A stretch of DNA of 64,000 bases from Azolla caroliniana (lineage: Eukaryota > Plantae > Polypodiophyta). Positions 1-55,100 of this stretch are shown in pieces. The DNA is taken from positions 20,336,001 through 20,400,000 of the forward strand of contig JBHGNT010000007.1 of assembly GCA_043228905.1 (NCBI GenBank), read 5' to 3'. The translations under genes and the position numbers were made by a program. The notes under the pieces were generated by a model. It did not search any database. It saw only the letters and a program-made list of their open reading frames with translations, and was not told the origin of the DNA. Numbering within the stretch: position 1 is the first letter of the stretch; every line of letters starts with the position of its first letter.

Positions 1-8
1 TATGTATG

Positions 9-15782: not shown

Positions 15783-16355
15783 ATGTTTGCCCATGATATG
15801 TTTACACCACGACAAGATGTTATGACTATTTGTCTGACCTTATTTTATTTCTTTGCCAGAAATAATCATTCAATGGCTCAGAATAACGACCCGATGCCCT
15901 CCGCTCAAGCGGAAAGACCTCAAGGAAATCCTCCTGGGACAATGTCCATTGAGGCGTATATTTTACAAGTACAACATTTCCTTAGTTCAACCGCGCAGCA
16001 GTTGACCGAATTTCGGCAATCTCAAAGTGCTCTCGAGGCACGAGTCATTAGTCTCCAAAATGAGATTAATAGACCTGATGAGCGTCAGGGTGAACCATCA
16101 TTTGTCGTAAAGCCATTTACGGGAGATAAAAAGGAAAGAACCGAAGAAGCAATCTGCACGTGGCTGGGCCGATGGGAGTCTCATTTTGAGCTCTATCCCA
16201 CGCCAGATAGTACGAAGATTGCATATGTCGGCCGAGAACTAGGGGGTAAGGCCGCCGCTTGGTGGCGTGGGCTCCGAACTTTGGGGAGATTGCCCGAGAC
16301 CTGGACAGACTTTGTCACAGTTTTCAAGGGTCAATTTCTACAACCTCCCTCTTGA
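15783..16355 (+). CDS. gag: gag N-terminal part (capsid), separated from the rest of gag-pol by one in-frame TGA
   Basis: LGGKAAAWW...TWTDFVTVFKGQF retrotransposon gag motif. The frame continues without shift into the ORF at 16377. Confidence 0.85.
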   Translation: MFAHDMFTPRQDVMTICLTLFYFFARNNHSMAQNNDPMPSAQAERPQGNPPGTMSIEAYILQVQHFLSSTAQQLTEFRQSQSALEARVISLQNEINRPDERQGEPSFVVKPFTGDKKERTEEAICTWLGRWESHFELYPTPDSTKIAYVGRELGGKAAAWWRGLRTLGRLPETWTDFVTVFKGQFLQPPS

Positions 16356-16376
16356 ACCGAGGCAGCACAAGCTTTA

Positions 16377-19300
16377 ATGAACCTCTCTAGCAGGAAGTTT
16401 TCCTCGCTAGAAGATTATGTCCACCATGCTAGAACCCAAATCCAAAAATCGGGTCTAGAAGGGGACAATTGGTTAATAGCTTGTTTTGTCAATGGCATCC
16501 CCAATTCGGACTATCACTGGATAGTGCACGATAAGGATCCAAAATCCTTCGAAGAGGCCGTTGAGATAGTTCTTCGCTATCAACGCACTTCGAAGAAGGA
16601 CCATAACAAACCCAACGAAGCGCCCGGGACTAAGCAGTCGCAATTCGTTGGGAAACGCAAGACACCCAACGAATTCATGGATCGCGATTATAAGCGACAA
16701 CATCCTTTTTGCGTATTCTGCAAAAAGAAGGGTCATACAAAAGAGCAATGTCGTAAGCTCCAACGAAAAGAGCATGACGCCAAACCTAAAGCTACAGACC
16801 ATAAAGGTCAGATTCCTAATGTCCTTCAGGTCTATACACATCATTTGAGTAATTGTCAATGTTCTTTCCCTCATTATGTATTGGATCCCAATGATTTACT
16901 ACATGCAAACGGGTATATCAATGGATCTCCCGTACAATTTTTATTTGATTCGGGAAGCTCACACAATTTTGTGAATGATCGTTTGGTACAGATATGGGGA
17001 ATTCAACCCACCGTAAGTGATCACACCTACACGGTGCACTTGGCTGATGGAAGAGTACAACACATCAACGGGGCGATTCATTCTTTAGGAATTTCTATTG
17101 ATACCTATATAGAGGAAGTAGACTTCCATGTAATGAATCTTAGTACCACCGATGTAATACTGGGTTATCCCTGGTTTTATAATAAAAGCTCTTCTTTATT
17201 TATTGATTGGGTTCGCCATTCCATTTCTTTTGTACTCAACGATTGTACGCATTTTATTCAATGTGTAACAAAACAATCCCTCTCGATTGTTTCCTCGTGT
17301 CCATCAATATCCGAGTTGTCTTGTTCTACGTTATTTTATTGTGTACTTGATCCGGACATTCACGTTTACAATATCGATAATGTCTCGGGTCAATTAACAT
17401 ATTTTGAACAAAAACAACTTGATGAAATCGTAAACGATTTTCGTGATGTTTTTCCGAGTGAACTACCCGATGGTTTACCTCCTAAACGTAATATAGACCA
17501 TCGTATAGATATTGTACCTGGCATTGCACCCATTAGTATACCTCCGTATCGCCTAAGTCGATCTGAAGAGGATGAGGTAGCTAAGCAACTTAAGGACTAT
17601 TTACGAATGGGTTATATACGTTATAGTAAATCTCCATGGGGTGCACCAGTTCTCTTGGTTAAAAAGAAAGAGGGCACATGGCGTATGTGTATTAATTACC
17701 GACGCTTGAATAAAGTGACGATCAAGAATTCGTACCCATTGCCCCGGGCTGACAATCTAATTGACCGTCTCCAGGGAGCTCGGTATTTTACGAAACTTGA
17801 TCTCCGTACTGGCTACCATCAAATACGAATAAGTGAGGACGATGTTCCTAAAACAGCATTTCGTACGCGCTACGGCCATTATGAGTTTTTGGTTATGCCT
17901 TTTGGTTTGACCAATGCTCCGGCTACATTTCAACAAGAAATGAATGACATTTTCCGAGAACAACTTGGAAAATTTGTCGTTATCTTCTTAGATGATATTT
18001 TAGTTTATAGCCATACATTACAAGAACATGCTAGACATGTCCGCTTTGTTTTACAAATATTGCGTGACAAACAATTTTACGCGAAGATCTCAAAATGTGA
18101 GTTCTTCAAGAAATCAATTACTTATCTTGGACATCTCATAACCAAACGAGGAGTTGAAATTGATCCTTCTCGCATCGAGAAAATCAAGCTTTGGCCCACT
18201 CTTCGGAATATTCGAGAAGTTCGATCATTCCTTGGTTTTGTCGGATTTTTGCGAAAATCTCTTCGTAATTACTCACAATTGACGACGCCGTTTACTGATC
18301 TTCTAAAAGGTCAAACGCGTAAGTCTACAAAACCTATTGTGTGGAATGCTACACTAGACCTCGCCTTTAAGGAACTCAAGGACTTGGTATGCAAGGCTCC
18401 TTCACTTCTTTTACCCGATCCTTCAAAACCTTTTGAGGTTGAAACCGACGCAAGCGATTATGCTATAGGTGCTGTCTTGTATCAAGATGGTAAACCAATA
18501 GCATTCGAGAGTAAGAAACTTGATTCTGCTCAATGTCGGTATACCGTTCAAGAAAAGGAATTATTTGCGGTTATACATGCGCTCAAAACATGGCGCCATT
18601 ATCTTTATGGAAATCGCTTTGTGGTAACTACGGACCACGAGTCCTTGAAATATTTTTGTGACCAACAAGACCTGAAAGGTCGTAAGGCACGATGGGCTGA
18701 TCTCATCCAGGACTTTGATTTTTCCATACGATATCGTAAAGGTTCCATGAATACTGTCGCTGATGCACTAAGTCGCATCCGTGAAGTTAACATGCTTAGC
18801 TTCACTGAAATAACATCAGATCTTTATGATCACCTTCGAGGAAAGTATCCTGATGACAATTATTTTGCAAAATACTGGGCAAGAGTCGAGTCTGGAACAG
18901 ACACCACCACACCCTCGAAGGAATACTTCCACATTGCTAACGGTCTGCTCTACCGTAATGGGAAGCTTTGTGTTCCAGATTTACCTGAGGTCAAAAAGAG
19001 AATTCTTTTTGAATGCCATGATGCACCCTCAGCAGGGCACCCTGGAATACATCGTACACTCGTTCTCATCTCCACTCAATTTTATTGGCCTAAGATGCGT
19101 CCTGACATACATAGCTATGTGACTGAATGTCACCAATGTCAGGTTAACAAAGCCGAGCGACTTAAAGCCGCAGGACTTTTACATCCCTTGGACATTCCCA
19201 ATAATAAGTGGGAAAGTATATCCATGGATTTTATTGTTAGCCTTCCTCGCACCCAAAAAGGTCATGATGCCATATGGGTTGTGGTTGACAGACTAACTAA

Positions 19301-20306
19301 AATGGCCAGATTTATTGCTACTAAAACCACGATAACAGCTCCTGAATTGGCTTACCAATTCGTTGATGAGTTATTTCGTTTTTACGGGTTACCGATGGAT
19401 ATCGTGAGTGACCGAGATCCGAAGTTTACTAGTGACTTCTGGACGCAAGTCTTTAAGAAGTTAGAAACTACGTTGAGCATGAGCTCCACGGATCATCCTC
19501 AATCCGATGGACAGACAGAACGAGTAAATCAAATTATTGAGGACATGCTTCAAGCATACGTTGGTGCAAAACCAACAAAATGGGAACGTTACCTCCCAAT
19601 TTTGGAGTTTGCTTATAACAGCTCCAAGCATACGTCGACGGGATATAGTCCTTTTATGTTGATGTATGGATTTCAGCCACGAGCCCCGATTGATGTTAAT
19701 ATACATCATGATGAGTTGCGAAGTACGCAAAACTTTCTTCGGGATATGCAAGATATGTTGCATATTGCACGGGATAATATAAAAACAGCTCAAGATAGAG
19801 CCCGTTTTTATGCCGATCATCACAGGCAACCTCGTGTATTTAGCCCTGGACAGAAGGTATTTTTACGTGTACCTCACAATTCTAAGACATTGTCTACGGG
19901 TAAGTGCGCTAAGTTAGCCCCACGGTTTTGTGGACCTTTTACAGTCCTCAAACGCATTGGATCATCAGCCTATCGTCTCGCTCTTCCCGATGGTGTTGGA
20001 ATCCATCCAGTCTTTCATGTAAGTCGTCTAAAAGAACTTCTAGGTTCTGGCGACAATACAGTTACAACTGAAACTCTGGTTACTTCTGAAGATTTATCTT
20101 CTAAACCACATGTACCAGAAAGAATTCTCGATGTTAAAACAAAAAAATTACGTGCTAAGGAAATCCGAGAATTTAAAATAAAATGGATGGATAAATCAAT
20201 CAAAGATGCCACATGGGAACGCGAAACGACTCTAACAACTAACTTCCCTAACTTTCCATTGCAAGAGTGCAATGTTTTAAAGAGGGGGAGTATGTTACGG
20301 GCATGA
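16377..20306 (+). CDS. pol: gag C-terminus plus pol polyprotein (CCHC, PR, RT, RNase H, INT, chromodomain)
   Basis: [14 protein letters not shown]; [10 protein letters not shown]; FLDDILVYS; [10 protein letters not shown]; HHCC; MDFIVSLP; GPF; PERILD...KW...ATWE chromodomain. The stop codon lies inside the 3' LTR. Confidence 0.95.
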
Positions 20307-21678
20307 CCATATAATATCCCGTGGTGAGAATTGTCGTAGTATTCTATACACGTGGATAAGTGTGAGGGTTAAACAAAGAGTCTAAAGAAGGGGAGGATTA
20401 CTTTTAATCCTCGGGATTGAGACAACCCATGAGGCCAAGTGTGAACATGGCTGGGGGCCTTGAGAATTACTATAAATAAGAGGCCTAGCTACCCTCATTT
20501 GGGGCATGCATTGACTACGTCGAGACTCTGTCCGTGAGTGGAACGACTCTTGTAGCAAGCGCGCTATCGTCCAGGTACGACTCGACGCCAAGGCGGTGGT
20601 ATGGGACGCCGATCGAGGCTCGAGTCCGTCTCGATCCCTTCGCTCGGGGCTGGTCGGGTGGATCGGCACCCTTCTTTCTCTCTTTTCTCTCTATTCTTTC
20701 TAGATCTATCATTGATATATCCTTATTTTATGCTTACTTTAGTACCTAATCTCTAATAATTCCCATATAATCTCCTACACAATTTGCATGACAAACACTT
20801 GGATGTATGGATTGAAGCATCATCTTTTGAAAATTTACACATTTACACAATGATCAACGTTCAATGATCCAAACTTGATCATGAAGATATGTAAAAAATT
20901 TCATTTGACCATAGATCACGTGATAAAACCTAATGAAAATCATTTTCAAAATTACTCACAATAATTCACAATAGTCTCATAATATGAAGCTTGGAACAAG
21001 ATACAATTGAGGATAAAATCTTCAACCTCGTTACATTGGGTGGCTAGAATAGGATGTGGATGAATAAGATGATGAGAGATTAAGAAGAACCTAGAAGAAA
21101 TCATCAACAAAAAGGTATATCTCAACTTGCAAGTCCTAACTTTGGGAATGGTGAAGTGTAGAGTTTGAAACTTGTTGGGACGTGATTCCTACTTTAGGAA
21201 TGATAAAGTGTAGAGTTTGAAATTTGTTAAGGCTGAGCTATGTGGTAAAAACAGAAAGAGAGACATACTTTAGTGAGTGTGCTCTTGAAACCAATCAAAG
21301 TAGAAGGGAGAAGGAAAGTTCATTGCTATGGATCAACAATTTGAGAGGCAAGGCCAAGCTTCATTAGTGAACAAATTATCATAAGATGATGTCAATGTAT
21401 TCCATGACCATAAACGACATACATCCATGTGCATAAGCATAACATCATTTCAGTGTATGCAATAAGCATGATAAGATGTGTGATAACTGTCACGTATTTC
21501 ATGATCATAACATGATGTGTAATATGTATCCATGTATATAGATAAGCATGTAGCTTAGCATAAAATAACCTTAACCTATAATATAACTAATGTTTTATGC
21601 ACTTTATTCCATCGCACACACCATGTCATCACGATAAGAAAACCTAATTCAACATTCCATTTGGTGATCACGCATTAG

Positions 21679-21907: not shown

Positions 21908-23011
21908 GTTTGTTGTGTTGCACTAAGAAAGTTGTTTGACGAACATGTTTTGCGATTAATATTTTGTGTTGCGTTGACGTGGATATTTGTCCACATGGTC
22001 ACTCTTTGACTCGTAGTCAAGAGGTTGTTCAAACACCACTTTTTTTATGGCCAATGTCAAAGGCATAAAAAAAAAAATATTGAATTTAAATGAAATGAAA
22101 ATCTTTATTTATACGTGATAAGTATAAGAGCAAGTTCAAGCATGCTAACCAAAGATTTGCGTTGATCCATTGTGGCTTTGCAATAGACAAATGTTTGTAT
22201 ACATAATACCAAGCATAAATGCTCACCATTAACCCTAAATGTAATGCTCATGACTTAGCTAGTCATGTATATAACATTACTGAATGTAATCACACATTCC
22301 CTAGCTTACACTAGCTTACATATACCTTCACCACTTTGTAAGGATGCACATCCCTTATTTGGCTACCATGCACAATGCTACAATAGTGATGATCCATATA
22401 TGTGTAACTTGTTGGCCTAATGTTACAATGATTAGTATACATAAGGTGGTAATTAGTTTTGCTAAAGTCTAAGATGCATGCATCAAGCTGGGAATGGGTT
22501 CAAGAACTCTAAATGATGTATGATATTTCATATGATTATGACAACCAATAAATTTGTGTTATCATAGACCTCTCTAAAAGCAAATACTTTAGGCTCATGA
22601 TTTTGGTTGCACACTGAAACCGTAAGTGTTTGCGGAAGCGTAAAACAGAGAACAACACAGAGAGAGAGAGAGAGAGAGACAGAGAGAGCAGAACACAATT
22701 TCAAAATTATATCAAGACTCTATATACACACTGTGCTAAGTAGCACTATTTATACAAGTCCTCTTGGGACTGACAGAAGTACCATGTACTTCAATGCTCA
22801 CACGAGCATCTGACACTTACTACGAGACTATAGCTACCTAGTAGTCTATCCTATACTAGGCTTCCGATTGGACTTCCGGTTACGGATTGCACCCGGCCTC
22901 CACTGCTTGCCGGTTCGGTTGCTCACCGTCATACCGATCCGTTTCGCCCGATCTGTCTCGCTTACCGGCTCCGGCTTATTCAGCCGATCCGGCTCCGGTT
23001 GAGCTTGCCGC

Positions 23012-25387
23012 TCAACACTCCCCCTCAAGCTCAACCTGAGGTGGGGTCGTAGTGTCGACCTCTGTGGCAGTCGGTTCTTCCAACCGACTTCTCCTGGCGT
23101 CACTCCGCCTTGCTCGCGCTCCTCGTCTGGTCCGGTCCCGTTTGCCGCGACCCCTTTGGTTTTGCGCGCCTCGACCCTCTCGGTCGGCATGTCTGCTCAA
23201 TAGGCCCATCTCAGCACTCACGTTGCTGTGACTCCGGCGCTTGCCGATCCGTCGGTTCTCCCACGATGGCATCGACTTCCGCTGTGTCCGTGTCCCCTTG
23301 GCCTTCAGTCGATCCGACTCATCCGGATCCATCTGTTGATCCGAGTCAGCTGTCTCCGACTCGTTCCAGCTCTTGTCTGAATCGGTACACTCCGATTCGA
23401 CTTCCGGCTTCAGGCCTCTCACCACATCGGACCACTTCCGAGTCTTGGCCTTCTCCATGCTTCCCTCGACTTCTTCAGCCGGTGAACCGAAATCGAATTC
23501 TTCATTCGACTCTACATCATGGTCAATACCGACGTGATGACCTCCGCACAGCATGCACTTCTCTTCCTGAGTGCACAACTCTTCTTCACAGCCGCTTGCT
23601 CCGACTTGTTCGGATGTGTCGACTTCCTTTGTTGACTCGGCTTCCTTCATCTTCTTGTCTCCTCTTCTTCCGGCTCTCCTCTTACCGACGGGTTCAACAG
23701 TTTTTTGGCCTTTGCCCGTTTCGGTAGAGACTTTGAACTTGCTTCTCCCCCTCAAGTGCGGCACGTCGAGATGCTGAATACCAAGCATGTCGGTAAAGTG
23801 CTGCAACTTGTCCGATCCGAGCGGCTTGGTGAAGATGTCGGCAACTTGCCGATCCGTATGAACATACCGTAGGTCAACTTCACCGCTCAGGACCCGCTCA
23901 CGCACGAAGTGGTAGTGCACCTCAATGTGCTTTGTACGAGCATGGAACACAGGGTTCTTGGCGAGCTGCAGGCTGCTCATGTTATTGTAGTAAATCGGGA
24001 TCGGGGTCGGTACCTCAATCCGCAAGTCTCGCAGCAGTCGCCGAAGCCAGATGGCTTCACAAGTGGCAACGGTAGCGGCCCGGTACTCAGCCTCAATGCT
24101 TGACAAAGCCACTGTGGGCTGCTTCTTGCTGCTCCACGCAACGACCGCGATACCTATGGAGAACATGTATCCGGAAGTGGAGCGGCGATCAGACGCATCG
24201 CCGGCCCAGTCAGCATCTGTGTAATTGACAAGCTCTTCGGGTATACCTCGCCAGTATAGCAGTCCCCGGTCCTTAGTGCCGCTGACATACCGTAATATTC
24301 GTTGCGCGCACTGAAGGTGCTCCACGGTCGGCTTCTGCATGAACTGACTTACCATGCCGACCGGATAGCTGATGTCAGGTCGGGTGATGGTTAAGTAGAT
24401 CAGGCTTCCGACAACCTGTCGGAACCGTTTCTCATTGCAGGCCGGTCCGGAGTTGGGACGGAGCTTCTGGTTCCGGTCCAGGGGTGTGGAGACAGGTCGG
24501 CAATCCGTCATGCTGAACTTATACAGCATATTCAACACGTAATGTCGTTGTGAGAGCAATATGCCATCGGGGGTCCGGATCACTTCGATCCCAAGAAAAT
24601 AATGAAGGTCCCCCAGGTCCTTCATTTCGAATGCGTCCGACAACTGGGACTTGACGCGGTTGATTTCGGGAAGACCCGGTCCGGTGATGACTAAATCATC
24701 CACATACAAGAGTATACATACCGGACCATCAGAGCCTTGCCGGATGAACAACGAAGAGTCCGACTTAGAGACAACAAACCCCAGCTTATGCAACCGGTGC
24801 GTGATCTTCGCGTTCCAAGCTCGGGGGGCTTGCTTCAAGCCGTAAAGCGACTTCTTCAGTCGGCATACCGCCGACTTGTTCATCTCTGATTGAAATCCGG
24901 GGGGCTGAGTCATAAAGACTTCTTCTTCAAGCTCTCCTTGAAGGAAGGCGTTCTTCACATCCATCTGGTGAAGATGCCACCCCCTTGCCGCAGCAACCGC
25001 TAGTACCACACGAACCGTCGTCATCTTTGCCACAGGAGCGAAGGTCTCGTCGTAGTCGATTCCGTGGGTCTGCGCGTATCCCTTCGCCACTAACCGGGCT
25101 TTGTACCGGTTAACAGAACCGTCGACGTTGTACTTGACCTTGTACACCCACTTGCATCCGATCAGTTTACAGTGATGGGGAGGATCAACTAGGTCCCAAG
25201 TTTCGTTGGCATCGAGTGCCCGCATTTCTTCGTCCATAGCGGCACGCCAATTTGCGTCTTTTGCCGCTTCTGCGTAGCTCTCCGGCTCACGCACTTCTGT
25301 TACCTTAGTCATGTACGCATAATGATGCGCCATGTATTCATTGTACCCGTACCGCATGATGGGTTGATTGGCGCAACGCACCGTCAC
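23012..25387 (-). CDS. copia RT-RNase H with an in-frame C-terminal extension of about 245 aa
   Basis: QMDVKNAFL, LYGLKQAPRAW, YVDD, TDADWAG, ADIFTKPL. The ORF continues past HLRGR into the 3' LTR. Confidence 0.9.
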   Translation of the reverse strand: MTVRCANQPIMRYGYNEYMAHHYAYMTKVTEVREPESYAEAAKDANWRAAMDEEMRALDANETWDLVDPPHHCKLIGCKWVYKVKYNVDGSVNRYKARLVAKGYAQTHGIDYDETFAPVAKMTTVRVVLAVAAARGWHLHQMDVKNAFLQGELEEEVFMTQPPGFQSEMNKSAVCRLKKSLYGLKQAPRAWNAKITHRLHKLGFVVSKSDSSLFIRQGSDGPVCILLYVDDLVITGPGLPEINRVKSQLSDAFEMKDLGDLHYFLGIEVIRTPDGILLSQRHYVLNMLYKFSMTDCRPVSTPLDRNQKLRPNSGPACNEKRFRQVVGSLIYLTITRPDISYPVGMVSQFMQKPTVEHLQCAQRILRYVSGTKDRGLLYWRGIPEELVNYTDADWAGDASDRRSTSGYMFSIGIAVVAWSSKKQPTVALSSIEAEYRAATVATCEAIWLRRLLRDLRIEVPTPIPIYYNNMSSLQLAKNPVFHARTKHIEVHYHFVRERVLSGEVDLRYVHTDRQVADIFTKPLGSDKLQHFTDMLGIQHLDVPHLRGRSKFKVSTETGKGQKTVEPVGKRRAGRRGDKKMKEAESTKEVDTSEQVGASGCEEELCTQEEKCMLCGGHHVGIDHDVESNEEFDFGSPAEEVEGSMEKAKTRKWSDVVRGLKPEVESECTDSDKSWNESETADSDQQMDPDESDRLKAKGTRTQRKSMPSWENRRIGKRRSHSNVSAEMGLLSRHADREGRGAQNQRGRGKRDRTRRGARARRSDARRSRLEEPTATEVDTTTPPQVELEGEC

Positions 25388-26783
25388 CTGATTTGAGGCC
25401 CTTCTTGGTCAGTTCGGTCTTCGTTGCCAAAGATCCGCCTTTCTCCTTTCCGGAGTCGGATACGCACCGATCCGACTCATCGTTGCCAGTTTCGAATTCC
25501 GGCATCTTCCTCTTCCCCTTCTCTTTGCGTGTGAACCGTTTCCTCGGTTCCTTGCGCGGGGAGAGCATGACAGAGTCTCCACCACTTGCCGTCTCTTCAT
25601 CTGACTGGTCCAACCGACTCAGTCGCTCGTTCGGTCCACTCAACCGTAACGATTCCGGACTCTCATCTTGAGTCCCGGCTTCATCATCCTCTATCAGGGC
25701 TGATTCAGGCTCACTGGCCTGATCTTCCGGCATTGGGTCGGGATCGGAAGTCGGAGTCGGTACGGAGTACCAAGATGCCGATTCATCGAACTCGACATCC
25801 CAGCTAACTCGGACTTCCTTCGTCCGGGGGTTATAGCACTTATACCCCTTTTGCTCTTGAGCATAGCCGATTAGGATGCATTTTTCCGATTTTGCATCCA
25901 GCTTTCTCCGCTTCTGATCCGGCACATGCACATACGCTATGCTGCCGAATATCCGAAGGTGTCTTAAGTTCGGCTTGCGCCCGAAATACAGCTCATGAGC
26001 TGACACCTTGTCACCAATGCGGTTTTGTATGTAGACGGCCGTCCGGACCGTCTCCGCCCAGTAGAACCGGGGCATGCTCTTCTCCTCCAACATTGCCCTT
26101 GCCGCTTCGACGAGTGTCCGGTTCTTCCTTTCGGCCACACCGTTTTGCTCCGGTGTGTATCTGCAGCTGAACTCTCGCCGAATTCCCTTCTGCTGTAGAT
26201 AACTAGTGAATTGGCCGGAAAAATATTCCTTTCCGCCATCCGACCGAAGGCATTTGATCTTCCTCTTCGATTCCCGTTCCACCATCTTCTGGAGGCTCCG
26301 GAAACAGTTGAAGACTTCGCTCTTCCGCTCAATGAGGTAGATCCAAGTATGTCGAGTATAGTCGTCGATGAAGGAGACGAAGTATCGGTTCCCGCCAAGG
26401 ATTACACTTTGTGCCGGTCCCCACACATCCGAGTGGATGAGATCGAGCTTGTTACGGCTCCGGTTCCGTTCGGTGGGGAATGGAAGCCGGTGTTGCTTCC
26501 CAAGTTGGCAGGCTTCACAAATTTCGGCTCTCCGGCTGCTGAACTTCGGCAAACCGAAAACGACTTGTTTCGTTTGCAGGTCTTGAAGCCTCCGGTAGTT
26601 GACGTGGCCTATCCGCTTGTGCCACAGGTCGATGTCTGACTCGACCTTCTGTCGTTTCGCGAACAGAGCGGTGCCAAAGTCATTGGTGTTGAGGATAAAC
26701 ATCCTCCAGTCTCTGCGCCCTTGCGCAATGACTTCGCCCTCATCCTCAATGAAGCACCCAAGGTGCGTAAACCGCACCTGCAT
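25338..26783 (-). CDS. copia integrase region (GAG-pre-integrase, rve, SH3)
   Basis: LWHKRIGH, CEACQLGKQ, HSDVWGP, RSDGGKEY, PEQNGVAERKNR. Confidence 0.92.
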   Translation of the reverse strand: MQVRFTHLGCFIEDEGEVIAQGRRDWRMFILNTNDFGTALFAKRQKVESDIDLWHKRIGHVNYRRLQDLQTKQVVFGLPKFSSRRAEICEACQLGKQHRLPFPTERNRSRNKLDLIHSDVWGPAQSVILGGNRYFVSFIDDYTRHTWIYLIERKSEVFNCFRSLQKMVERESKRKIKCLRSDGGKEYFSGQFTSYLQQKGIRREFSCRYTPEQNGVAERKNRTLVEAARAMLEEKSMPRFYWAETVRTAVYIQNRIGDKVSAHELYFGRKPNLRHLRIFGSIAYVHVPDQKRRKLDAKSEKCILIGYAQEQKGYKCYNPRTKEVRVSWDVEFDESASWYSVPTPTSDPDPMPEDQASEPESALIEDDEAGTQDESPESLRLSGPNERLSRLDQSDEETASGGDSVMLSPRKEPRKRFTRKEKGKRKMPEFETGNDESDRCVSDSGKEKGGSLATKTELTKKGLKSGDGALRQSTHHAVRVQ

Positions 26784-28092
26784 CCCCTGATCGACAATCT
26801 AACCGACGGACACCAGGTTCTTCGTGATTGTCGGAACGTGTAATACGTTCATCAGCTTCCCTTTCTGTCCGACGTGGCTTAGAGGGACTTCTTCGACGTG
26901 CACGATTGGGTGAGGAGTGTCGTCTTCGGTTTCGACTACTCCTGGTTGATCCGGTTTCTCCAGAAAGGAGAACCACTCTTTGTGGCTCGTCATGTGGTTC
27001 GACGCGCCGGAATCAACATACCACACTTCCTCCGTTTTGGAAGTGGTCTTCTTCATTGAGTTTGCCTTGTGATTCATCACCAAGGCTGGCCCCTTACCGG
27101 CCTTTCCGGTTCCGGATCCTCCTGATCCGTTTGCATAGTGCAAGTTTTGCCGGCCATCCTTACCGGTCTTGCCGGATCCGGATTTGTCCGAATCGGCACG
27201 CTTTCTCCAGCACTCGCTTTCCCTATGGCCTTTTTTGCCACAGTACCAACATTCCGTAGCGGATTTGTCTTGCCGGCCTCCGGCACCGCCTTGACTCCCC
27301 CTGCTTGTGGAAGTCCTGGAACTGCTGTCGGCACACTCATAGTGCCTCCGTTCCTGCTCTTGCCGGCCGCCTCCATTGCGTGCCGACCCACCTCTTCCAC
27401 CACGCCCACGGAGCCGATCCGTTCCCGTGTACAACATTCGGCTATCTGGGGATGCACTGGTAGATGCACCGGCGTGGTTCTCCTCTACAAGGAGCATCGA
27501 CTGTAAGTCGAAGAATGAGGGGGTATTCTCCCTTGTACACACCGCAGTCCGGAACGTTCCGAACTTGGACGACAGGCCTCCGAGACATACCTGCTGTCAT
27601 GAGATGGCAAGACTCGAACCCATGACCTTATGGTATATGGGTCGAGTTCTTAACCATCTCACCATCTATTGTAATTCATAGGATATTATTTTCATTTTTG
27701 TTTTATTATAAGAAAGTAATGTATATTCCAGATTTCTCTGGAACATTCTAGAAGCTTCAGGATTATTCCTGAGAACACTATAAAAGAAGGCACTAAGCAT
27801 TATGTTGAACCAAATTGGTTCAACACCAGTCTTAAGCCTCTTAGCCGATTTGTACTTATCTTTCATATAATATAAGAGCTGTTGTCATCATCCTATCTCT
27901 CTCTCTCTCTCTCCTCTTCTCATTTTCTCTCTCTCGGGAATCTTACGCAGTCCCGTCCTCTTAGTACTAATAGTACTACTCTTCTTAGTACTAATTCCAT
28001 CTCTGCTTTAGTACTATTCCTGACAGTTTGAACCAATTTCTCTCTAGCCTACTTGTCACTCTCCCTCATCCTCCTACCCTTTTTCCTATACT

Positions 28093-29250
28093 ATGGCTAC
28101 TGTTAGCGCCCAAGAATACCAATCCGTTTTCTCCGAGCTACAGTGCCTAAAAGAAAAGTTTGTGGCCCTGGAACAAGAAAACCAACGGCTGATAGGGGAT
28201 CTGCAACAAATCGCTCTCGAAAAACAACAAACGCAACAACAACATGGGGAGTTAGCGTTACGGGTACAACAACTCGAAGCAGCGTTGCAACAACAAGGAT
28301 CCAGTCCCCAAGGATTTCATAAAGAGCCCAAGATTGGACTTCCTGTGAAATTTGATGGAACGCGTTCGCAATTCCGGGGATTCCTTAATCAGGTACGCTT
28401 AGTCATCCAGATGCATCCTTCCCGATATCCCACTGATGCATCCCGAGTCGGCCTAATAGGCACGCTACTTAGCGGCTCAGCCTTGGCATGGTTCGCTCCG
28501 CTTCTAGAAAAACAATCCCCCTTGCTTAATAACTTTGAAGATTTTATTGGTGAGTTTAAAGCCTGCTTTGGAGACACCGACAGCATCAGGACGGCGATCA
28601 ACAAGATCCGGCGATTGCGTCAAGGCGATCGTCCAGCCTCTGCCTACGCGGCGGATTTCCGCCTACTTGCTTCAGATATACCCTGGGATGATCAAGCACT
28701 AATGGAGCAGTTTCGCTATGGCTTGCGAAACGATGTCAAAGATCTACTTCTCACTTTCCCCGAGGAACCAAAGTCTCTTACGGAGGCAATCAGTCGAGCA
28801 GTTCGATGTGACAACCGCCTGTTCGAACGGCGTTCAGAACGTCAATTACAGATACCACGCTCTAGACCAGAGCCCACTTACGCCGCAGTCGCGGCTAAAC
28901 CATTTGCACGAGACATACCTCAAGCAAATACTTCGACACCGATGGAGATCGATACCATGCGTCGACGCGGCCCGTTATCGGAAGAAGAAAAGCAACGACG
29001 ACGTGCCAATCGATTATGTCTTTATTGCGGTGGACCAGGACATATCGCCATCAATTGTCCCCATAGGCCAAGAAGACAGGTAAATCAAATCGTCGCCTGT
29101 ACTAAACCCGAGTCAATTCTTCCCATCGGAGTGTCTGATAGTATTAATAGTACTAATAGAGTGTCAGATAGTATTCATAGTACTAATAGCCCAAGTATCT
29201 CAAATAAATTTGAAATCCTTAGTCAATTAGATGAAGAGTTAAACGATTGA
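28093..29250 (+). CDS. gag: gag (coiled coil, PEG10/RTL1-like capsid, CCHC knuckle)
   Basis: EPKIGLPVKFDGTRSQFRGF, LLSGSALAWF, LRQG...YAADF, PMEID, CLYCGGPGHIAINC. Confidence 0.95.
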   Translation: MATVSAQEYQSVFSELQCLKEKFVALEQENQRLIGDLQQIALEKQQTQQQHGELALRVQQLEAALQQQGSSPQGFHKEPKIGLPVKFDGTRSQFRGFLNQVRLVIQMHPSRYPTDASRVGLIGTLLSGSALAWFAPLLEKQSPLLNNFEDFIGEFKACFGDTDSIRTAINKIRRLRQGDRPASAYAADFRLLASDIPWDDQALMEQFRYGLRNDVKDLLLTFPEEPKSLTEAISRAVRCDNRLFERRSERQLQIPRSRPEPTYAAVAAKPFARDIPQANTSTPMEIDTMRRRGPLSEEEKQRRRANRLCLYCGGPGHIAINCPHRPRRQVNQIVACTKPESILPIGVSDSINSTNRVSDSIHSTNSPSISNKFEILSQLDEELND

Positions 29251-32200
29251 GTCCAGCCAAAATAGGAGCCATTTGGTTGGACAGCAGCCCTAGATCTGTA
29301 CAGCCCATTAGTGGTTCCATTCCTTCCAAGCAAATTAGCAATGTGTTCCTAGCCCAAGTCATTGTTAGTACTAAAAGTACTCCCCCAGTACCCGTCCTAG
29401 CACTTTTAGATTCCGGAGCTAATTCCTGTTTCATGGATCGAAATTTTGCCCAAGCTTCTCAGATATCCTTAAGAAAACTTCCTTGTCCCGCATCTGTAGT
29501 GGTCATTGATGGTCGTCCCATTGCTTCCGGGAATATTGTAGAAGAATCAGAACCCATTCAAGTTGTCTTAGGTAGTTTTGTGTGTATAATATCATTTAAT
29601 ATAATTAGTAGTCCAGAGCATCCCATTGTCCTAGGATTACCTTGGCTTGAATTACATAATCCAGCCATAGATTGGAGAACAAGAGAAGTCCGATATCGAC
29701 CACCCCAAGAATCAACTCACCGAGTTTCGACCATTTCACTCCATCAACTACGTGAAGAAGGACCCAAGGAGGCAATGTTCCTATTTGCCATATCAGTACA
29801 TCCTTCCAGCACTATTAAGAAGGACTCCTCAGTACAACTTCCGGCAAAATATCATCCTTATGCCGATGTATTTGACAAGGTAAAAGCCGGTACCCTTCCT
29901 CATCACCGTCCCTATGACTGTCCCATCGATTTACAACCAGGAACCGAGCCACCATGGGGACCAATTTACAACTTGTCACCCACCGAGTTAGAAGTCCTTC
30001 GAGCCTACATAGAGGAGAACTTGGCAAGCGGGTTCATCCGTCATTCGAAATCTCCAGCCGGTGCACCCATCTTCTTTGTCAAGAAGAAAGATGGCTCACT
30101 TCGTCTTGTCGTTGATTACCGCGGATTGAATAAAGTCACCATCCGGAATAGGTATGCACTTCCTCTTATATCAAGTCTTTTAGAGCGAGTTAATGGTGCC
30201 AAGTTTTTTACTAAAATCGATCTACGAGGAGCGTATAATCTCGTGCGGATCCGACCGGGAGATGAGTGGAAGACCGCTTTTCGCACGCGGTATGGGCATT
30301 TCGAGTATACTGTTATGCCGTTTGGCCTAACCAATGCACCCGCAGTCTTCCAACACATGGCAAATGATATATTCAGAGACCTCTTAGATATCTGTTTGAT
30401 CATTTATCTGGATGATCTGTTGATTTATTCGAAGACCCAGGAAGAGCACGATTCTCATGTACTATTAGTACTAAAGCGACTCCGCGAGAATGGTCTTTAT
30501 GCCAAGCTAGAAAAGTGTAGCTTTGACTGCAAGCAAGTGGAATTTCTAGGCTACGTCATCTCCTCAAAGGGCATCGCCATGGATCCAGCTAAAGTCCAAA
30601 CTGTACTAGAGTGGCAAATTCCACGGTCGGTACGAGATGTACAATGTTTTCTAGGTTTTGCTAACTTCTACCGTAAGTTTATACAGGATTACTCGAAGAT
30701 TATCTTACCCCTCACACAGCTTACGAAGAAGGGCCAAGCATTTCTTTGGTCCATTGAAGCAGATATGGCTTTTCGACATCTTAAGAAAGCCTTTACATCA
30801 GCACCGATTCTAGCTCATGTGGATACTAGCAAACCATTCATCATGGAGGCCGATGCTTCAGATTTCGCCCTCGGTAGCATCCTTTCTCAACAAGGAGATA
30901 AAGAAGAGTTGCATCCGGTGGCTTTCCATTCGCGCAAATTCGATGTTGCGGAAATCAACTACGAAATACATGACAAGGAGTTATTAGCCATCGTGGATTC
31001 ATTTGTGCAATGGCGGCATTTCTTAGAGGGCTCTCCACATCAGGTCGTTGTCTTTAGTGATCATAAAAATCTTGCTTATTTCCAGAACGCTCGCGTACTA
31101 AATCGACGGCAAGCTCGGTGGGCGCAATTCCTCACGCGTTTCGACTTCAAAATCACATATCGACCGGGGAAGCAACAAGGAAAAGCAGATGCACTGTCAC
31201 GGCGTTCATATCTTGCACCTCGTCCTGGTGATCCAACATTTGATAATCAAAAGCAAGTAATCTTGGGACCAGCACGATTGCACACGACGCGGATTTTTCA
31301 CACCCCGATGGATTCACGGATTACTGACGACATACGTGCAAACTTGAAGACGGATAGTTTTGCTCAAAAAATCTTGGCGCACATTGATACTTCTCGGGCA
31401 TCCTGTTCTCAGTCTCAACAACCAGGTATTGACTACCGACAATTCGAATATCATGATGGTTTGTTATTCTTTAAAAAGCGCGTATATGTCCCCGATTGCT
31501 CCTGTCGCCTTCACATCATCCAGCATTGTCATGATACCCATACGGCGGGACATTTCGGTAGTACTAAGACGTTGGAGCTAGTGCAACGATCTTTTTGGTG
31601 GCCCCACATGCGTCGTTTTGTCGATGACTACGTTCGGACCTGTGATGCTTGCTGCCGAGCAAAGATGCCACGACACCATCCATATGGCTTGTTGGAACCC
31701 TTACCGATTCCAAGTAAGCCGTGGCAATCTATTTGTCTTGATTTTATCACAGATCTGCCGGTCTCGCAGGGGTTCGATGCTATCTTAACCGTCGTCGATC
31801 GATATACGAAGATGGCACATTTTGTTCCATGTACTAAGGCCATCACTAGCGAGGAAACCGCCGTCCTAGTCATGCGTGAGGTATTTCGGCATCATGGCCT
31901 CCCAGACAGTATCATTAGTGACCGAGGACCACAATTTGTCTCCAAATTTTGGCAGCATCTCTTCAAGATGCTCAAGGTCTCTTGCAACCTCTCCTCCGGC
32001 TACCATCCTCAGACCGATGGGCAGGCAGAACGAACAAACCAAACGTTGGAGCAATATCTCCGGTGTTTCCTGAGTTATCAACAAGACGATTGGGCCGAGA
32101 TTCTCCACTTTGCGGAGTTTGCGTATAATAATGTTGTTCACTCCTCGACTCGAGTCTCCCCATTCTACGCGTATACCGGTTCTCATCCTCGCTGGTCGGT

Positions 32201-32520
32201 GATCGACACCCCGGAGCTACCTACCAATCCTCGTGCCGGGGATCATTTGGAGAGACTACGCAAGATCCAGACAGATCTCTCGACTCATCTTCATCATGCT
32301 CAACAGACACAGAAGATTTACGCGGATCGTCATCGGCTTCCCTCCTCTTTTGCCGTCGGAGATCGAGTATGGCTCTTACGTCGTCACATCAAGACTACTC
32401 GACCATGCGACAAGTTGGATTATCGACGACTCGGTCCTTTCCTTATTACGGGTAAAGTTAATGATGTCACCTTCCGCCTTGATCTCCCTCCGCCGCTTCA
32501 GCTACATCCGGTTTTCCATT
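29238..32520 (+). CDS. pol: pol (PR-RT-RH-INT) in the -1 frame relative to gag, interrupted after HPVFH by another LTR and an assembly gap
   Basis: LLDSGANSCF, YLDD, EADASDFALG, HHCC, DFITDLP, GPF. No ATG; overlaps the end of gag. Confidence 0.93.
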
Positions 32521-32922
32521 GAGATGGCAAGACTCGAACCCATGACCTTATGGTATATGGGTCGAGCTCTTAACCATCTCACCATCTATTGTAATTCATA
32601 GAATATTATTTTCATTTATGTTTTATTATAAGAAAGTAATGTATATTCCAGATTTCTCTGGAACATTCTAGAAGCTTCAGGATTATTCCTGAGAACACTA
32701 TAAAAGAAGGCACTAAGCATTATGTTGAACCAAATTGGTTCAACACCAGTCTTAAGCCTCTTAGTCGATTTGTACTTATCTTTCATATAATATAAGAGCT
32801 GTTGTCATCATCCTATTTCTCTCTCTCTCTCCTCTTCTCACTTCCTCTCTCTCGGGAATCTTACGCAGTCCCGTCCTCTAGTACTAATAGTACTAATAGT
32901 ACTACTCTTCTTAGTACTAATT
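32520..32922 (+). mobile_element. extra LTR of the same Tcn1-like family inside integrase, running into the N gap
   Basis: Near-identical to 27600-27995 but with its own SNPs, an extra AGTACTAAT unit, and no initial TGTCA. Confidence 0.8.
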
Positions 32923-33022
32923 NNNNNNNNNNNNNNNNNNNNNNNNNNNNNNNNNNNNNNNNNNNNNNNNNNNNNNNNNNNNNNNNNNNNNNNNNNNNNN
33001 NNNNNNNNNNNNNNNNNNNNNN
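32923..33022. other. assembly gap (100 N)
   Basis: Run of N. Confidence 1.
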
Positions 33023-33259
33023 ACGCTGGAGTTGGACACCGGCCCGGAGTATGAAGTTGCTGCCATCCTCGATTCCAAACTTCTTCGCAACAAACTTTAC
33101 TATTTGATCGATTGGGTTGGTTATAGTCCGAGCGAACGCACTTGGGAACCTGTCGAGCATGTTGCCAATGCTCAGGATTTGCTTGCTGATTTCCACCGAA
33201 AGTATCCGGACAAACCCGGTCCGCAATCAGCGCCGACTCGTTCCACTCGTCGTCTTTAA
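33023..33259 (+). CDS. integrase C-terminal chromodomain (group I, HP1-like aromatic cage)
   Basis: EYEVAAILDSK...YYLIDWVGYSPSERTWEP. Confidence 0.9.
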   Translation, partial: TLELDTGPEYEVAAILDSKLLRNKLYYLIDWVGYSPSERTWEPVEHVANAQDLLADFHRKYPDKPGPQSAPTRSTRRL

Positions 33260-34284
33260 GGGGGAGATAGTGTCATGAGATGGCAAGACTCGAACCCATG
33301 ACCTTATGGTATATGGGTCGAGTTCTTAACCATCTCACCATCTATTGTAATTCATAGGATATTATTTTCATTTTTGTTTTATTATAAGAAAGTAATGTAT
33401 ATTCCAGATTTCTCTGGAACATTCTAGAAGCTTCAGGATTATTCCTGAGAACACTATAAAAGAAGGCACTAAGCATTATGTTGAACCAAATTGGTTCAAC
33501 ACCAGTCTTAAGCCTCTTAGCCGATTTGTACTTATCTTTCATATAATATAAGAGCTGTTGTCATCATCCTATCTCTCTCTCTCTCTCTCCTTCTCATTTT
33601 CTCTCTCTCGGGAATCTTACGCAGTCCCGTCCTCTTAGTACTAATAGTACTACTCTTCTTAGTACTAATTCCATCTCTGCTTTAGTACTATTCCTGACAC
33701 CTGCACCATCTCGTCTTCCTCTATGGTAACATTGATAGAGGCGAGCGAGTCGCAGATCTCCTTTATCCGGCCCGTGTAGTCTGCCACGGACATGTTCTTC
33801 TGTCGAACATTGCTCAACTCCTGTCTGAGTTGCAGCTTCCGGGCAGTGGTGCTTGCGGCGAAAACCTTTTTCAGGTTCCCCCAAGCATCCTTCGGTGTCT
33901 TAGCATCACGGATGTGGCTGAGCAGCTGATCGCCGACACTGGACGCGAAGCAGTACATCACCCTGCTTGCCGCCTATTCCCATACCGGGAAGACCTTGTG
34001 TGCCGAGTCGGGCGCTGCATCATTCGCTCCTTCGACATAACTCCAGTACCCGTGTCCAAGCAGGTACTGGTGCATCTTGTAAGACCAGGATGCGTAGTTG
34101 CTCCTGTCGAGCTTCTCCACCGGGAGCGACGTAGCCATGCCTCTATCCATGTCTTCTACTGTGTCTGTTTTCGACTTGTTAGGGTTTTCTTCTCAAGAGT
34201 AAATGTTTGCAGCAGAGGTTCTCAACCCTCACGCTTTGATACCATGAAACCGTAAGTGTTTGCGGAAGCATAAAATAGAGAACA

Positions 34285-34331
<47 letters not shown>

Positions 34332-34714
34332 AGAACACAATTTCAAAATTATATCAAGACTCTATATACACACTGTGCTAAGTAGCACTATTTATACAAG
34401 TCCTCTTGGGACTGACAGAAGTACCATGTACTTCAATGCTCACACGAGCATCTGACACTTACTACGAGACTATAGCTACCTAGTAGTCTATCCTATACTA
34501 GGCTTTTGATTGGACTTCCGGTTACGGATTGCACCCGGCCTCCACTGCTTGCCGGTTCGGTTGCTCACCGTCATACCGATCCGTTTCGCCTGATCCGTCT
34601 CGCTTACCTGCTCCGGCTTATTCAGCCGATCCGGCTCCGGTTGAGCTTGCCGCTCAACACACACCATCAAGGATTTCCGTCCAAGAATCGGTGGGAACAA
34701 CCCAACAATTTTCT

Positions 34715-50900: not shown

Positions 50901-51325
50901 CCAATATGATCTTGGCAGATGTTTCTCGTTCATCATTGCCCTTGTTACATCGAGTATGTGCCGATTCTTGCATTCGGCTACTCCATTCTGCTGAGGTGTG
51001 TGTCGGCAAGTAAACTCCCGCCGGATTCCTTTTTGTCGAAGGTATGTTGTGAAGGCATCAGAGAAGTACTCTTTGCCGCTGTCCGATCGAAGACATCGTA
51101 CATGATGATCGGTTGCCTTTTTGACTTTGTTCTTGAATTTTTGGAAGTGCGAGAACACTTCATTCTTTAGGCGCATGGGATAAATCTAGGCAGGTCTGAA
51201 GAAGTCGTTGATGAACGTTACGTAGTACCGACAACCACAAATGTTGTCGTCTAGGCTGGTCCCCATACATCTGAATGTATTACATCCAGGATCCCTTTGC
51301 TTACGTTCCTCTCCTTTCGGAACGG

Positions 51326-52185
51326 TGTCGTGAAGAATGTGCTTCACGATATAAAAATGAGCTTAAATGTTGTATTTAATAATATTTGAGAGACTTGAAC
51401 CCACATCCTTATATACGATGTACAATGTACATACCACTAGGCTAGGCTATTTATTTGTAAAAGTGTGTAATAAATGTGCTTCATGATATAAGAATGAAGC
51501 TATATATTGTATTAAGTAAAATTGAGGGACTACCAAGCATACACCACTAAGCTAGGTTAGTTATTTTAGAATGCATTTTCATCATTATAATTATCTCATA
51601 TCTATTTTCATACATAGCCATCATTCATCACATGCAATGCATGTGCGCCAAATGGCGATCATGCATTACATGTAACTCATGCATTGCATGCATGCCATGC
51701 TCCCATACATTACCATATGCATGGCAACACTTATATAAGAGGGGAAAGGGAAAACAAGGAAGGGAATCAAGAGAAAGTTAGAGAAATAAGATAATTAATG
51801 AAACAAACAAGTTAGCTTGTTGGTGAAGAGGCTCGTGTTTCCAAGTTGGAGTCAAGAGTTCGAATCAAGGGTCGGTAGAGAAAGGGTTCATCTTGCTACC
51901 AAACATTGTAAAGTTGGTAAAATCTTGTATTTGTAATATACATCATGTTCATATCATATATTTTTTGTCTTAAATCATACTTTGTCTCTATCTTGCGTCT
52001 TGAATCATACATTGCCTCTATCTTTTATCTATACTAGTCTCTCTCTCACACATATTACTTTAAACTATTATTCTTCATATCCTTTATCTTCCTAACATTT
52101 GCACGCAAGCCTAATAAAAGTTCCTTCAACTCCCCTTAACCTTAGTCCCTGCGACTTCGCCGCACGAACCACAACTACCCCGACA
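51326..52185 (+). mobile_element. solo LTR (860 bp, TGTCG...CGACA, 4-bp TSD ACGG) inserted in copia E integrase
   Basis: Removing the insert plus one ACGG restores the host frame (QPFRKERNVSKG). TATATAA at about 51732. Orientation inferred from the TATA box. Confidence 0.85.
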
Positions 52186-55100
52186 ACGGTTGTCAGTGAT
52201 GTTTGCCGAATTGGCACGTTTCGCACACACATGTAGTTTCCTTTTCGGTAATAGTTGGGAGTCTGATGAAGACTCCTTTTGATTGCATTCCTTTTGAGCT
52301 TTTGGAGGTTGATGTGGCTTATCCTCTTGTGCCACACTCTATGTCAGCCTTGGCTCTCTAGCCCTTGGCATACATTGCCGTTTTCATCTCGTGAGAGTCG
52401 AGGATGAACATCTGACCTTCTCTCCGACTGGGAATGATAAGTTGGTCTTAATTTTTGATGAAGTCTCCTCCATCGTTGAAGTGGACTTGTATGCCTTGTT
52501 TGTCTATCTAGCCAATTGAGACCAAGTTCTTTGTTATTATAGGAACATGTAGAATGTTCTTGATGTAGGTTTGGTTTCCTTCTTCCCCAAATGGGACATT
52601 GCTGACATGTTGAATGTGGTGAATTGTGTCATCCCCAATTTCCACATAGCCGGGTTGTTCATGCTTTCGTAGCTCTTTGAACCAATCCTCGTGGGATGTC
52701 ATTGTCAGGAATAGTACTAAGATAGAGGGAATTAGTACTAGAGATAAGGATTAGTACTAAGAGGGAAGGAGGGTGTAGAACTCTCTCTCTCTCTCTCTCA
52801 TGATGATAACAAATGATATATTATATGAAGAGAATATACAAGAATAGCTAGGAGATTTAAGAATGTCGTTGAACCGAATTGGTTCAAAATAAGGCCTTGT
52901 GCCTCTTTTTATTGCATTGTCACAACTACTCCTGAAGTTTCTAGAATGTTCTAGAGAAATCTGGAATATACATCAATTTTCTATAGTGAAATAATAAATG
53001 AAAGCAATTTTTTTTGTATTACAATGTATAACTTAATGGTAGGGCTTTAAACCATGTGACACAAGGTCAGGGGTTTAAATCCTTATAAAGCCATACCATG
53101 CTATATCATGACACTATCCCCCCTAAGACGACTTGTATAGATTGAGGACCTAGTTTGTCGGGGTATTGTCGATGGAAGTCCTCAAATAAGAGCTTGAGCG
53201 TTTGTTACATTCTCGACTGGTTCCCAAGTATGCTCGCTTGGACTATAGCCTAGCCAATCAACCAAATAGTAGAGCTTGTTGCAAACAATCTTGGAATCGA
53301 GGATGGCAGCAACTTCGTACTCTGGTCCTGCTTCAAGCTCGATTGGGGGTGGAGGTGGTGTAATACGATTCAGAATAGTGTTGTCTTGATGAGGTTTGAG
53401 AAGAGAACTATGAAAAACCGGATGTACCCGTAGTTGCGGAGGTAGCTCGAGACGGAAAGTGACATCATTAATTTTTCCGGTAATACGGAAAGGACCTAAT
53501 CGTCGATAATCCAATTTTTCGCATGGACAAGTAGTCTTGATGTGTCGTTGTAATAGCCATACCCGATCTCCAATGTTAAAACTGGACGGAAGCCGATGAC
53601 GATCCACATAATCCTTTTGTGTTTGTTGAGCTTGATGTAAATGAGTAGATAAGTCTGCTTATATCTTGCATAGCTGCTCCAAATGATCCTCTACACAAGG
53701 ATTTGTGGGTAACTTCGGAGTTTTGAATACACACCGCTGAGGATGATAGCATTTATAAGCATAAAATGGTGTAACCCTAGTCGATGAGTGGATAGAGTTA
53801 TTATATGCAAATTCGGCAAAGTGGAGAATATCCGCGCAATCATCTTGTTGATACCTTAGAAAACATCGAAGATACTGTTCTAGCATTTGATTTGTTCGTT
53901 CTGCTTGTCCGTCTGTTTGAGGGTGATAGCCAGAGGAGAGGTTACAAGTGACCTTCAACATTTTGAAGAGATGCTTCCAGAATTTCAAGACGAATTGAGG
54001 TCCACGGTTGTTGATGATACTATCTTGGAGGCCATGATGCCGAAATACCTCATGCATGACAATTTGGGTGGTTTCTTCACTAGTGATTTCCTTAGTACAA
54101 GACAGGAAATGTGCCATCTTATTATATCCATCTACTACTGTTAAGATCACATCGAATCCCTTTGAAATTGGAAGATCTGAGATGAAATCTAGAGAAATGG
54201 ATTGCCATGGCTTGCTTGGAATTAGTAAAGGTTCCAATAAACCATATGGATGATGTCTTGGCAGCTTTGCTCTGCAACATGTATCACATGTCCAAACATA
54301 GTCTTTGACAAATCGTCGCATATGAGGCCACTAGAATGATCGTTGTACTAAATGCAATGTTTTAGTACTACCAAAATGCCTAGTTGTATATGTGTCATGA
54401 CAATTTTGGACTACTCAAAGGCGACAAGAACCATTAGGAACATACAAGAGTTTCTTAAAGAATAGTAATCCATCATGATATTCAAATTGTTGATAGTTCG
54501 TACCTAGTTGTTGCGATTGTGAACAAGATGCCCGAGAGGGATCAATTTGCGCTAGAATGGCTTGAGCGAAAGCGTCTGTCTTCAAGTCTTCACGTATGGT
54601 ATCGATAATGTGGGAATCCAATGGCGTGTTGAAAACCCACGTTGCTTGCAGTCGTGCCGGTCCTAGGATTACTTGCTTTTGATTATTGAATGCTGGATCA
54701 CCGGGACGAGGTGCTAGATGTGAGCACCGCGATAACGCATATGTCTTCCCTTGCTGCTTCCCAAGACGATATGTAATTTTGAAGTCGAAACAAGTGAGGA
54801 ATTGGGCTCATCGAGCTTGACGTCGATTTAATACACGAACATTCTAGAAGTAGGCAAGATTTTTGTGATCACTGAACACAATGACTTGATGAGAAGATCC
54901 CTCTAAAAAATGCCTCCATTGTGTAAAAGAGTCCACTATTACCAATAGCTCCTTGTTATGTATTTCGTAGTTGATTTCGGCAGCGTCAAACTTGCGTGAG
55001 TGGAAAGCAACAAGATGTAGCTTTTCATCATCGCCGTGTTGTGACAAAATGCTACTGAGGGCGAAATTCGATGCGGCTACATTTTTCCAGTTTTGCATAA

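Follow-up and report, generated by a model that had tools for sequence, protein, structure and literature searches.

Conserved antisense tRNA-type box pairs in retrotransposon LTRs of Azolla caroliniana as predicted TFIIIC sites beside a Pol II promoter

A Phygy-like solo LTR and its box cassettes

We analyzed a 64,000-nucleotide stretch of the Azolla caroliniana genome (hereafter the window), in which a minus-strand copia pol, with integrase similarity reaching 51322, is interrupted by a solo long terminal repeat (LTR) of a Phygy-like Ty3/gypsy element. The original prediction had placed this solo LTR at 51388..51870; the solo LTR is real, but its true extent is wider, 51326-52185, with ACGG on both sides. 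The antisense tRNA-like cassette (51444-51393), the TATATAA (about 51732) and the sense cassette (51813-51866) read from it at the outset all lie where they had been placed. The features of this LTR, together with cassettes elsewhere in the window that serve for comparison, are as follows.

51322..51325, plus strand: left target site duplication ACGG, 4 bp, NCGN type
51326..52185, plus strand: solo LTR, Phygy-like Ty3/gypsy, 860 bp, TG...CA, ends common to 29 other copies
51391..51444, minus strand: antisense cassette 1, A box 51444-51433, B box 51401-51392, offset 43
51524..51554, minus strand: remnant antisense cassette 2, tandem duplicate of the U3 unit, A box 51554-51543 intact
51626..51715, no strand: ATGCAT-rich palindromic core upstream of TATA, the most conserved long LTR block across subfamilies
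51732..51738, plus strand: TATA box TATATAA, predicted Pol II promoter, place kept across subfamilies
51813..51866, plus strand: sense cassette 3, A box 51813-51824, B box 51856-51866, offset 44
52186..52189, plus strand: right target site duplication ACGG, 4 bp
27610..27664, minus strand: comparison, antisense cassette at the 5' end of a Tcn1-like LTR, 25.3 bits
32530..32584 and 33286..33340, minus strand: further Tcn1-like antisense cassettes, 25.3 bits each
53029..53082, plus strand: comparison, cassette antisense to a minus-strand Tcn1-like LTR, 26.9 bits

The remainder of the window includes a PPR-repeat open frame with an E motif amid the retrotransposon nest (6516-8138, minus strand), an intact chromovirus whose LTRs are 99.8% identical (13708-20761), and a copia element with a nested Tcn1-like element and three LTR copies (22615-34671).

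Searching the plant's own genome (523 Mb) with this region returned 1,271 candidates, most of the 40 that were scored being 92-95% identical, and family LTRs are 860-926 bp long. The full-length parent that the original prediction had proposed to look for was found in the form of ~7.4 kb gag-pol elements. These parents carry a polypurine tract and gag-pol in RT-RNase H-integrase order, with the coding region filling the interior (ORFs of L032); Pfam recognizes RT, RNase H and the integrase zinc finger, no Pfam Chromo match was found in the parent ORFs, and there are frame breaks in the parent copies read. When the two LTRs of an element were compared, identity was 98.6-100% for 6 of the 7 examined and 95.8% for the seventh. 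The family is young and gag-pol-coding. The primer site behind the 5' LTRs is complementary to the 3' end of the genome's own tRNA-Trp. A central CG is present in 40 of 45 outer flanks, and among 15 loci where the LTR could not be classed as 5' or 3', a 4-bp target site duplication was seen in 8 and a 5-bp one in 1. A 4-bp NCGN target duplication and a tRNA-Trp primer site are described as marks of Phygy (Neumann 2019, PMC6317226), and we classify the window family as Phygy-like by its NCGN duplication, its tRNA-Trp site and a domain order without chromodomain. The named homologues of its Pol come from Riccia and Adiantum.

The layout across the family is antisense cassette, antisense cassette, palindromic core, TATA, sense cassette. 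Cassettes 1 and 3, which score 31.4 and 23.1 bits respectively, are present in 30/30 copies and are therefore part of the LTR rather than later SINE insertions; a SINE inserted after transposition is ruled out by this shared place. The original prediction had named TSD-flanked SINEs absent from most family copies as the outcome that would speak against it, and what we found was cassettes in 30/30 copies. It had also described cassette 2 as a duplicate keeping only its A box. This is true of the window copy, where a private 26-bp deletion at 51531/51532 has removed the B box and left a lone A box, but not of the family, as the full cassette (29-35 bits) is present in all 29 of the other copies (two of which may be one place assembled twice). 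The palindromic core, with 70 of 100 columns unchanged across three subfamilies, is likely a Pol II upstream element, and sense cassette 3 likely lies in R. ARAGORN reports 0 tRNAs in the window and Rfam, searched to E<=10, gives none either, so the likeness to tRNA is confined to the boxes of the cassettes; combined with stems that are mostly lost, these results rule out a tRNA gene.

Box pairs across the genome and among LTR families

Box pairs were scored with an A-box/B-box matrix trained on the same genome's tRNA genes (67 distinct genes from 13 isotypes, several of them organellar). Against the 31.4 and 23.1 bits of cassettes 1 and 3, the best score in 1000 dinucleotide shuffles of the window LTR was 18.9 bits. 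The window as a whole holds 7 sites of at least 22 bits vs. 0.1 in shuffles, with 6 of the 7 inside LTRs, and 400 kb taken at fixed positions hold 14 sites of at least 23 bits vs. 0.8. With motif patterns picked after the cassettes had been seen, the exact A-box/N31/B-box pattern matches 3,147 times genome-wide (reversed control 0), the A-box/B-box pattern at eleven longer spacings only 79 times in total, and the B-box pattern 1,807 times vs. 3. When we inspected by eye the first 30 matches on one chromosome, which are not a random sample, 29 of the A+B-pattern loci lay antisense in U3 of Phygy or Tcn1 LTRs, as did 29 of 30 B-box-pattern loci chosen in the same way; the remaining locus of each set has no assignment. 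Box pairs are thus strongly enriched in LTRs, as the original prediction had expected. It had further been proposed that unrelated LTR families carry the boxes, and they are indeed common to the Phygy-like non-chromovirus and the Tcn1 chromovirus lineages; self-BLAST of the window likewise shows no likeness between the solo LTR and the Tcn1-like LTRs.

Some box pairs have no assigned LTR (L151:417-670, L147:6805, L155:8548 and window 35511), the one at L151 being a tandem box pair followed by a CT repeat; these are possible SINE-like source elements. Two further loci, L310 and L351, carry cassettes in elements without a family, and L310, which has a purine tract and TG ~206 nt upstream, may be a further LTR family. 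Nuclear tRNA genes stand in single-isotype tandem clusters (Trp, Lys, Arg, Ile), such as those at C8:17.80-17.82 Mb, C16:4.99-5.11 Mb and C5:17.99 Mb.

Distribution within Phygy was assessed in 17 LTR groups found by primer site in 1.37 Mb of DNA: 5 of these carry the cassette, 10 carry none, and 2 gave matches from neighbouring elements. The cassette is therefore dispensable for the lineage. Most of the cassette-free groups are GC-rich and a few are truncated, with one AT-rich relative among them. In a Gag tree of 20 rows, two of them mispaired by nesting, cassette-bearing and cassette-free families are split by one branch whose support (89/92) is not strong; this would fit one old gain in Phygy and at least one loss. 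Among Tcn1-type 5' LTRs, 20 of 23 have the antisense cassette. At 17 bits, no cassette was found in the window's copia LTRs or its second chromovirus LTR, and matches near 5 of 18 methionine-primed groups apparently came from less than half of the members or from an adjacent LTR.

Only in the window's Phygy clade did we observe a sense cassette downstream; there, cassettes bracket TATA in 30/30 window-family copies and in most of the diverged relatives. The other Phygy families and the Tcn1 LTRs examined have the upstream cassette and no downstream one. The upstream antisense cassette is the general module, and the downstream sense cassette is a one-clade add-on that keeps mainly its B box.

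Outside this genome, a metagenome scan yielded 8 loci, two of which, 95-96% identical in Pol, have the same cassettes, while the rest are without LTRs. Viral contigs gave 25 primer-site matches and no Phygy relative, and the distant chromovirus-like relatives found there were without cassette at 17 bits in 10 of 10 cases.

Several rearranged elements were also observed. At L125:1248-8168, a Phygy gag-pol close to that of family 2 has a different LTR in front and its second LTR copy inverted, which suggests LTR exchange or inversion. At L173:5190-6064, two Tcn1-like LTRs, both with an antisense cassette, are joined head to head in an inverted repeat. Behind the Tcn1-like LTR at window 27595-28025 lies a stretch complementary to the LTR ~30 nt past TATA, as expected for self-priming; this stretch happens to have the core letters of a B box.

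Conservation of the boxes and methylation-related sequence traces

Conservation was measured in an alignment of 43 rows of related LTRs (46 representatives minus three short ones and the window copy, plus a reference). Within the three subfamilies compared, the antisense cassette shows no change at 12 of its 14 tRNA-invariant positions, compared with 15 of its 39 remaining positions (p = 0.003) and, elsewhere in U3, 50 of 127 (p = 0.001). With four rows set aside for poor alignment, 35 of the remaining 39 have the same A-to-B length. In the sense cassette, 5 of 7 B-box positions are unchanged and 3 of 7 A-box positions, with the A box decaying in one subfamily while the B box stays. The antisense cassette recurs in other Phygy families. 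Apart from it, their LTRs show no obvious resemblance to the window family's, and identity to that family is down to 44% in Gag and 59% in Pol.

The features expected of an RNA product behave differently from the boxes. Folded as cloverleaves, 13 cassettes form 1-4 of 7 acceptor-stem pairs, 0-3 of 5 anticodon-stem pairs and 1-5 of 5 T-stem pairs, and a T4 terminator follows within about 70 nt in only 7 of the 13; T runs do stand behind cassettes 1 and 2 within the LTR, and behind the sense cassette. With the stems mostly lost and T4 in only 7/13, no RNA product is conserved. Thus selection has preserved the two boxes and their distance rather than an RNA fold, and fixed box positions and spacing beside unfixed stems and terminators point to a predicted TFIIIC DNA site. 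Between its boxes, the family with the least decay is similar to tRNA-Arg(TCT) of this genome (score 16 over 23 positions).

The original prediction had further read the paired cassettes around the promoter as the layout expected of chromatin boundaries, and we examined sequence traces of methylation with this in view. CG cytosine transitions affect 34/61 sites between the cassettes vs. 41/104 distal and 30/76 downstream, with changes at A/T sites of 7-11% in this comparison, and a second mutation-spectrum test shows the same trend. CG sites between the cassettes thus mutate no less than those outside: by this indirect measure most copies were not shielded from CG methylation there, and the mutation spectra do not support a methylation shield.

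CHG sites follow another pattern. The bracketed zone has 0 CHG sites vs. 14.7 expected, with none of 500 shuffles as empty and only 4 of 260 GC-matched genomic tiles equally so. Across the promoter half (51326-51870), 7 CG remain and CHG none, and most Phygy LTRs with a cassette show this too. In 5 of 10 families, CHG-rich sequence gives way to CHG-poor sequence at the cassette; one copia LTR (window 8-438) and one Phygy LTR are equally CHG-poor without a cassette. The CHG loss in the promoter half could represent avoidance of CHG methylation or long decay.

A predicted TFIIIC site, its alternatives and the closest known systems

We propose that the conserved cassettes are predicted TFIIIC binding sites that help keep the Pol II promoter open in repeat-dense chromatin, a reading to which we give an even chance. 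It would begin with a tRNA gene or the head of a SINE being captured long ago, the source resembling tRNA-Arg in the family where decay has gone least far. Host TFIIIC would then bind the U3 cassette as a DNA site, perhaps joined by TFIIIB toward TATA, and by depleting nucleosomes locally or acting as a barrier on that side it could leave the LTR Pol II promoter accessible. In published work, the B box is the high-affinity TFIIIC site and the A box a weak one, B-box-only sites without Pol III act as barriers (PMC12409998, PMC2040200), and B2 SINEs mark chromatin boundaries in mouse (PMC8136502). In yeast, a tDNA barrier is effective whichever way it faces (PMC2040200), whereas the U3 cassettes are uniformly antisense, so a pure barrier would leave orientation unexplained. 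A broader version, which we offer tentatively and hold clearly less probable, is that Phygy-like and Tcn1 elements each built a captured tRNA-type promoter into U3 as a TFIIIC-recruiting anti-silencing module, scattering thousands of mobile TFIIIC sites through heterochromatin.

The cassettes might instead be working Pol III promoters, whose short antisense U3 RNAs (and sense RNAs from R) would tune the LTR by transcription or as small-RNA sources. The antisense cassette's retention of both boxes at tRNA spacing and the T runs behind cassettes 1 and 2 inside the LTR would suit such a role, strict antisense orientation fits avoidance of collisions with the Pol II promoter, and Pol III promoters in simian foamy virus LTRs offer a precedent (PMC3993851). 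We nonetheless consider it rather unlikely, given that interior, stems and terminators are not conserved, that 6 of 13 cassettes are without T4 within ~85 nt, and that in one subfamily the sense cassette has a decaying A box beside a retained B box. Contigs of three RNA runs, compared with one family LTR, were uninformative on the strand, start and level of transcripts, and a combination of the sense cassette with TATA as a Pol III upstream element is disfavoured, as the distance between the two varies by tens of bases between subfamilies. Less probable still is a neutral relic, in which an ancestral LTR took up a SINE or tRNA fragment that has since been inherited and exchanged among families while serving no purpose. 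The cassette is missing from many Phygy families, the window copy has lost one B box, non-box letters common among Phygy cassettes point to common descent, and the finding of one LTR type on another family's gag-pol implies that LTR parts move; what a relic does not explain is that box positions and spacing outlast the surrounding LTR across >50% Gag divergence.

Two other readings strike us as improbable. If the U3 cassette acted in the element RNA, base-pairing to the primer tRNA's D and T arms and so supplying the 3' part of a bipartite site as in Ty3 (PMC5371799), both its antisense orientation and its U3 position would be accounted for; tRNA-Trp has the same 43-nt offset, and it ranks 2/13 for two related families. 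For the window family, however, the duplex energy of tRNA-Trp ranks only 9 of 13 isotypes (several of them organellar) with both cassettes, a sense cassette cannot pair with the primer tRNA in this way, and Tcn1 elements, described as having no tRNA primer site (PMC6317226), carry the same module. The layout first envisaged, strictly paired, outward-facing boundaries that keep the promoter unmethylated and were gained independently by several LTR families, seems to us equally doubtful. The arrangement around the Pol II promoter is genuine in the window clade, where TATA is bracketed in 30/30 copies and in most diverged relatives, and the bracketed zone has no CHG sites. It fails to generalize: the other Phygy families and examined Tcn1 LTRs have an upstream cassette only, CG decay inside the bracket is not below that outside, and with the sense cassette limited to one clade and its A box decaying, paired boundaries are not the general rule.

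Returning to the TFIIIC site beside a Pol II promoter, Pol III boxes in LTRs are known from tiny non-coding TRIMs, where they are proposed to produce the element's RNA, and from foamy viruses, where they produce microRNAs. Here they face backward in full-size coding elements, and neither role fits well. Among the open-access papers listed by our literature searches, Repbase reports aside, we found no description of conserved antisense cassettes in autonomous plant Ty3/gypsy LTRs. If TFIIIC binds, this would be a cis-acting use by retrotransposons of the host Pol III machinery against silencing, and the >3,000 sites of this genome, in which sister families differ in having the cassette or not and individual copies have lost parts of it, would lend themselves to asking whether TFIIIC shapes plant chromatin as it does in yeasts and mammals, a question that to our knowledge is open in plants.

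Among known elements, Phygy (PMC6317226) shares with the window family the 4-bp NCGN duplication, the tRNA-Trp site and a compact gag-pol without chromodomain. Its listed length is 7,656-9,968 bp, the window family being slightly shorter at ~7.4 kb, and the available part of its description is silent on tRNA-like LTR cassettes, which the window family has. For Tcn1, the LTR description, in its available part, mentions only TATA and CAAT boxes (PMC2864245). Helenus/TRIMp3 (Kojima 2024, PMC10886601) likewise has tRNA-derived LTR sequence with boxes A and B conserved and no functional tRNA; SINE capture is proposed there, one plant case (Selaginella) is given, and 'not a few' Repbase LTRs are noted, without description, as holding tRNA-like parts. 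Helenus elements, however, are non-coding TRIMs of 311-1263 bp, whereas the carriers here are 5-7 kb gag-pol elements with a TATA box. Template RNA is proposed to come from their Pol III promoter, with autonomous partners expected to use Pol II (PMC10886601), while the general cassette here is antisense and upstream of TATA, and so cannot make genomic RNA, which sets it apart from Helenus.

The Pol III miRNA cassettes of foamy-virus LTRs (PMC3993851) likewise place A and B boxes in the U3 of an autonomous element with a Pol II promoter, but are described as driving defined hairpin RNAs with terminators; here none are conserved and most cassettes are antisense. The Ty3 bipartite primer site (PMC5371799) is similarly a tRNA-complementary U3 sequence, although one specific for its primer tRNA, while our cassettes have no tRNA-Trp preference and are also carried by self-primed Tcn1. 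In yeast tDNA barriers, B-box boundaries, ETC sites and B2 SINEs, TFIIIC sites are reported to act on chromatin and not via RNA, with the B box as the main determinant (PMC2040200, PMC12409998, PMC8136502). Those boundaries are host loci or free SINEs, orientation-independent in S. pombe (PMC2040200, PMC12409998), whereas the putative sites described here are fixed in a mobile promoter.
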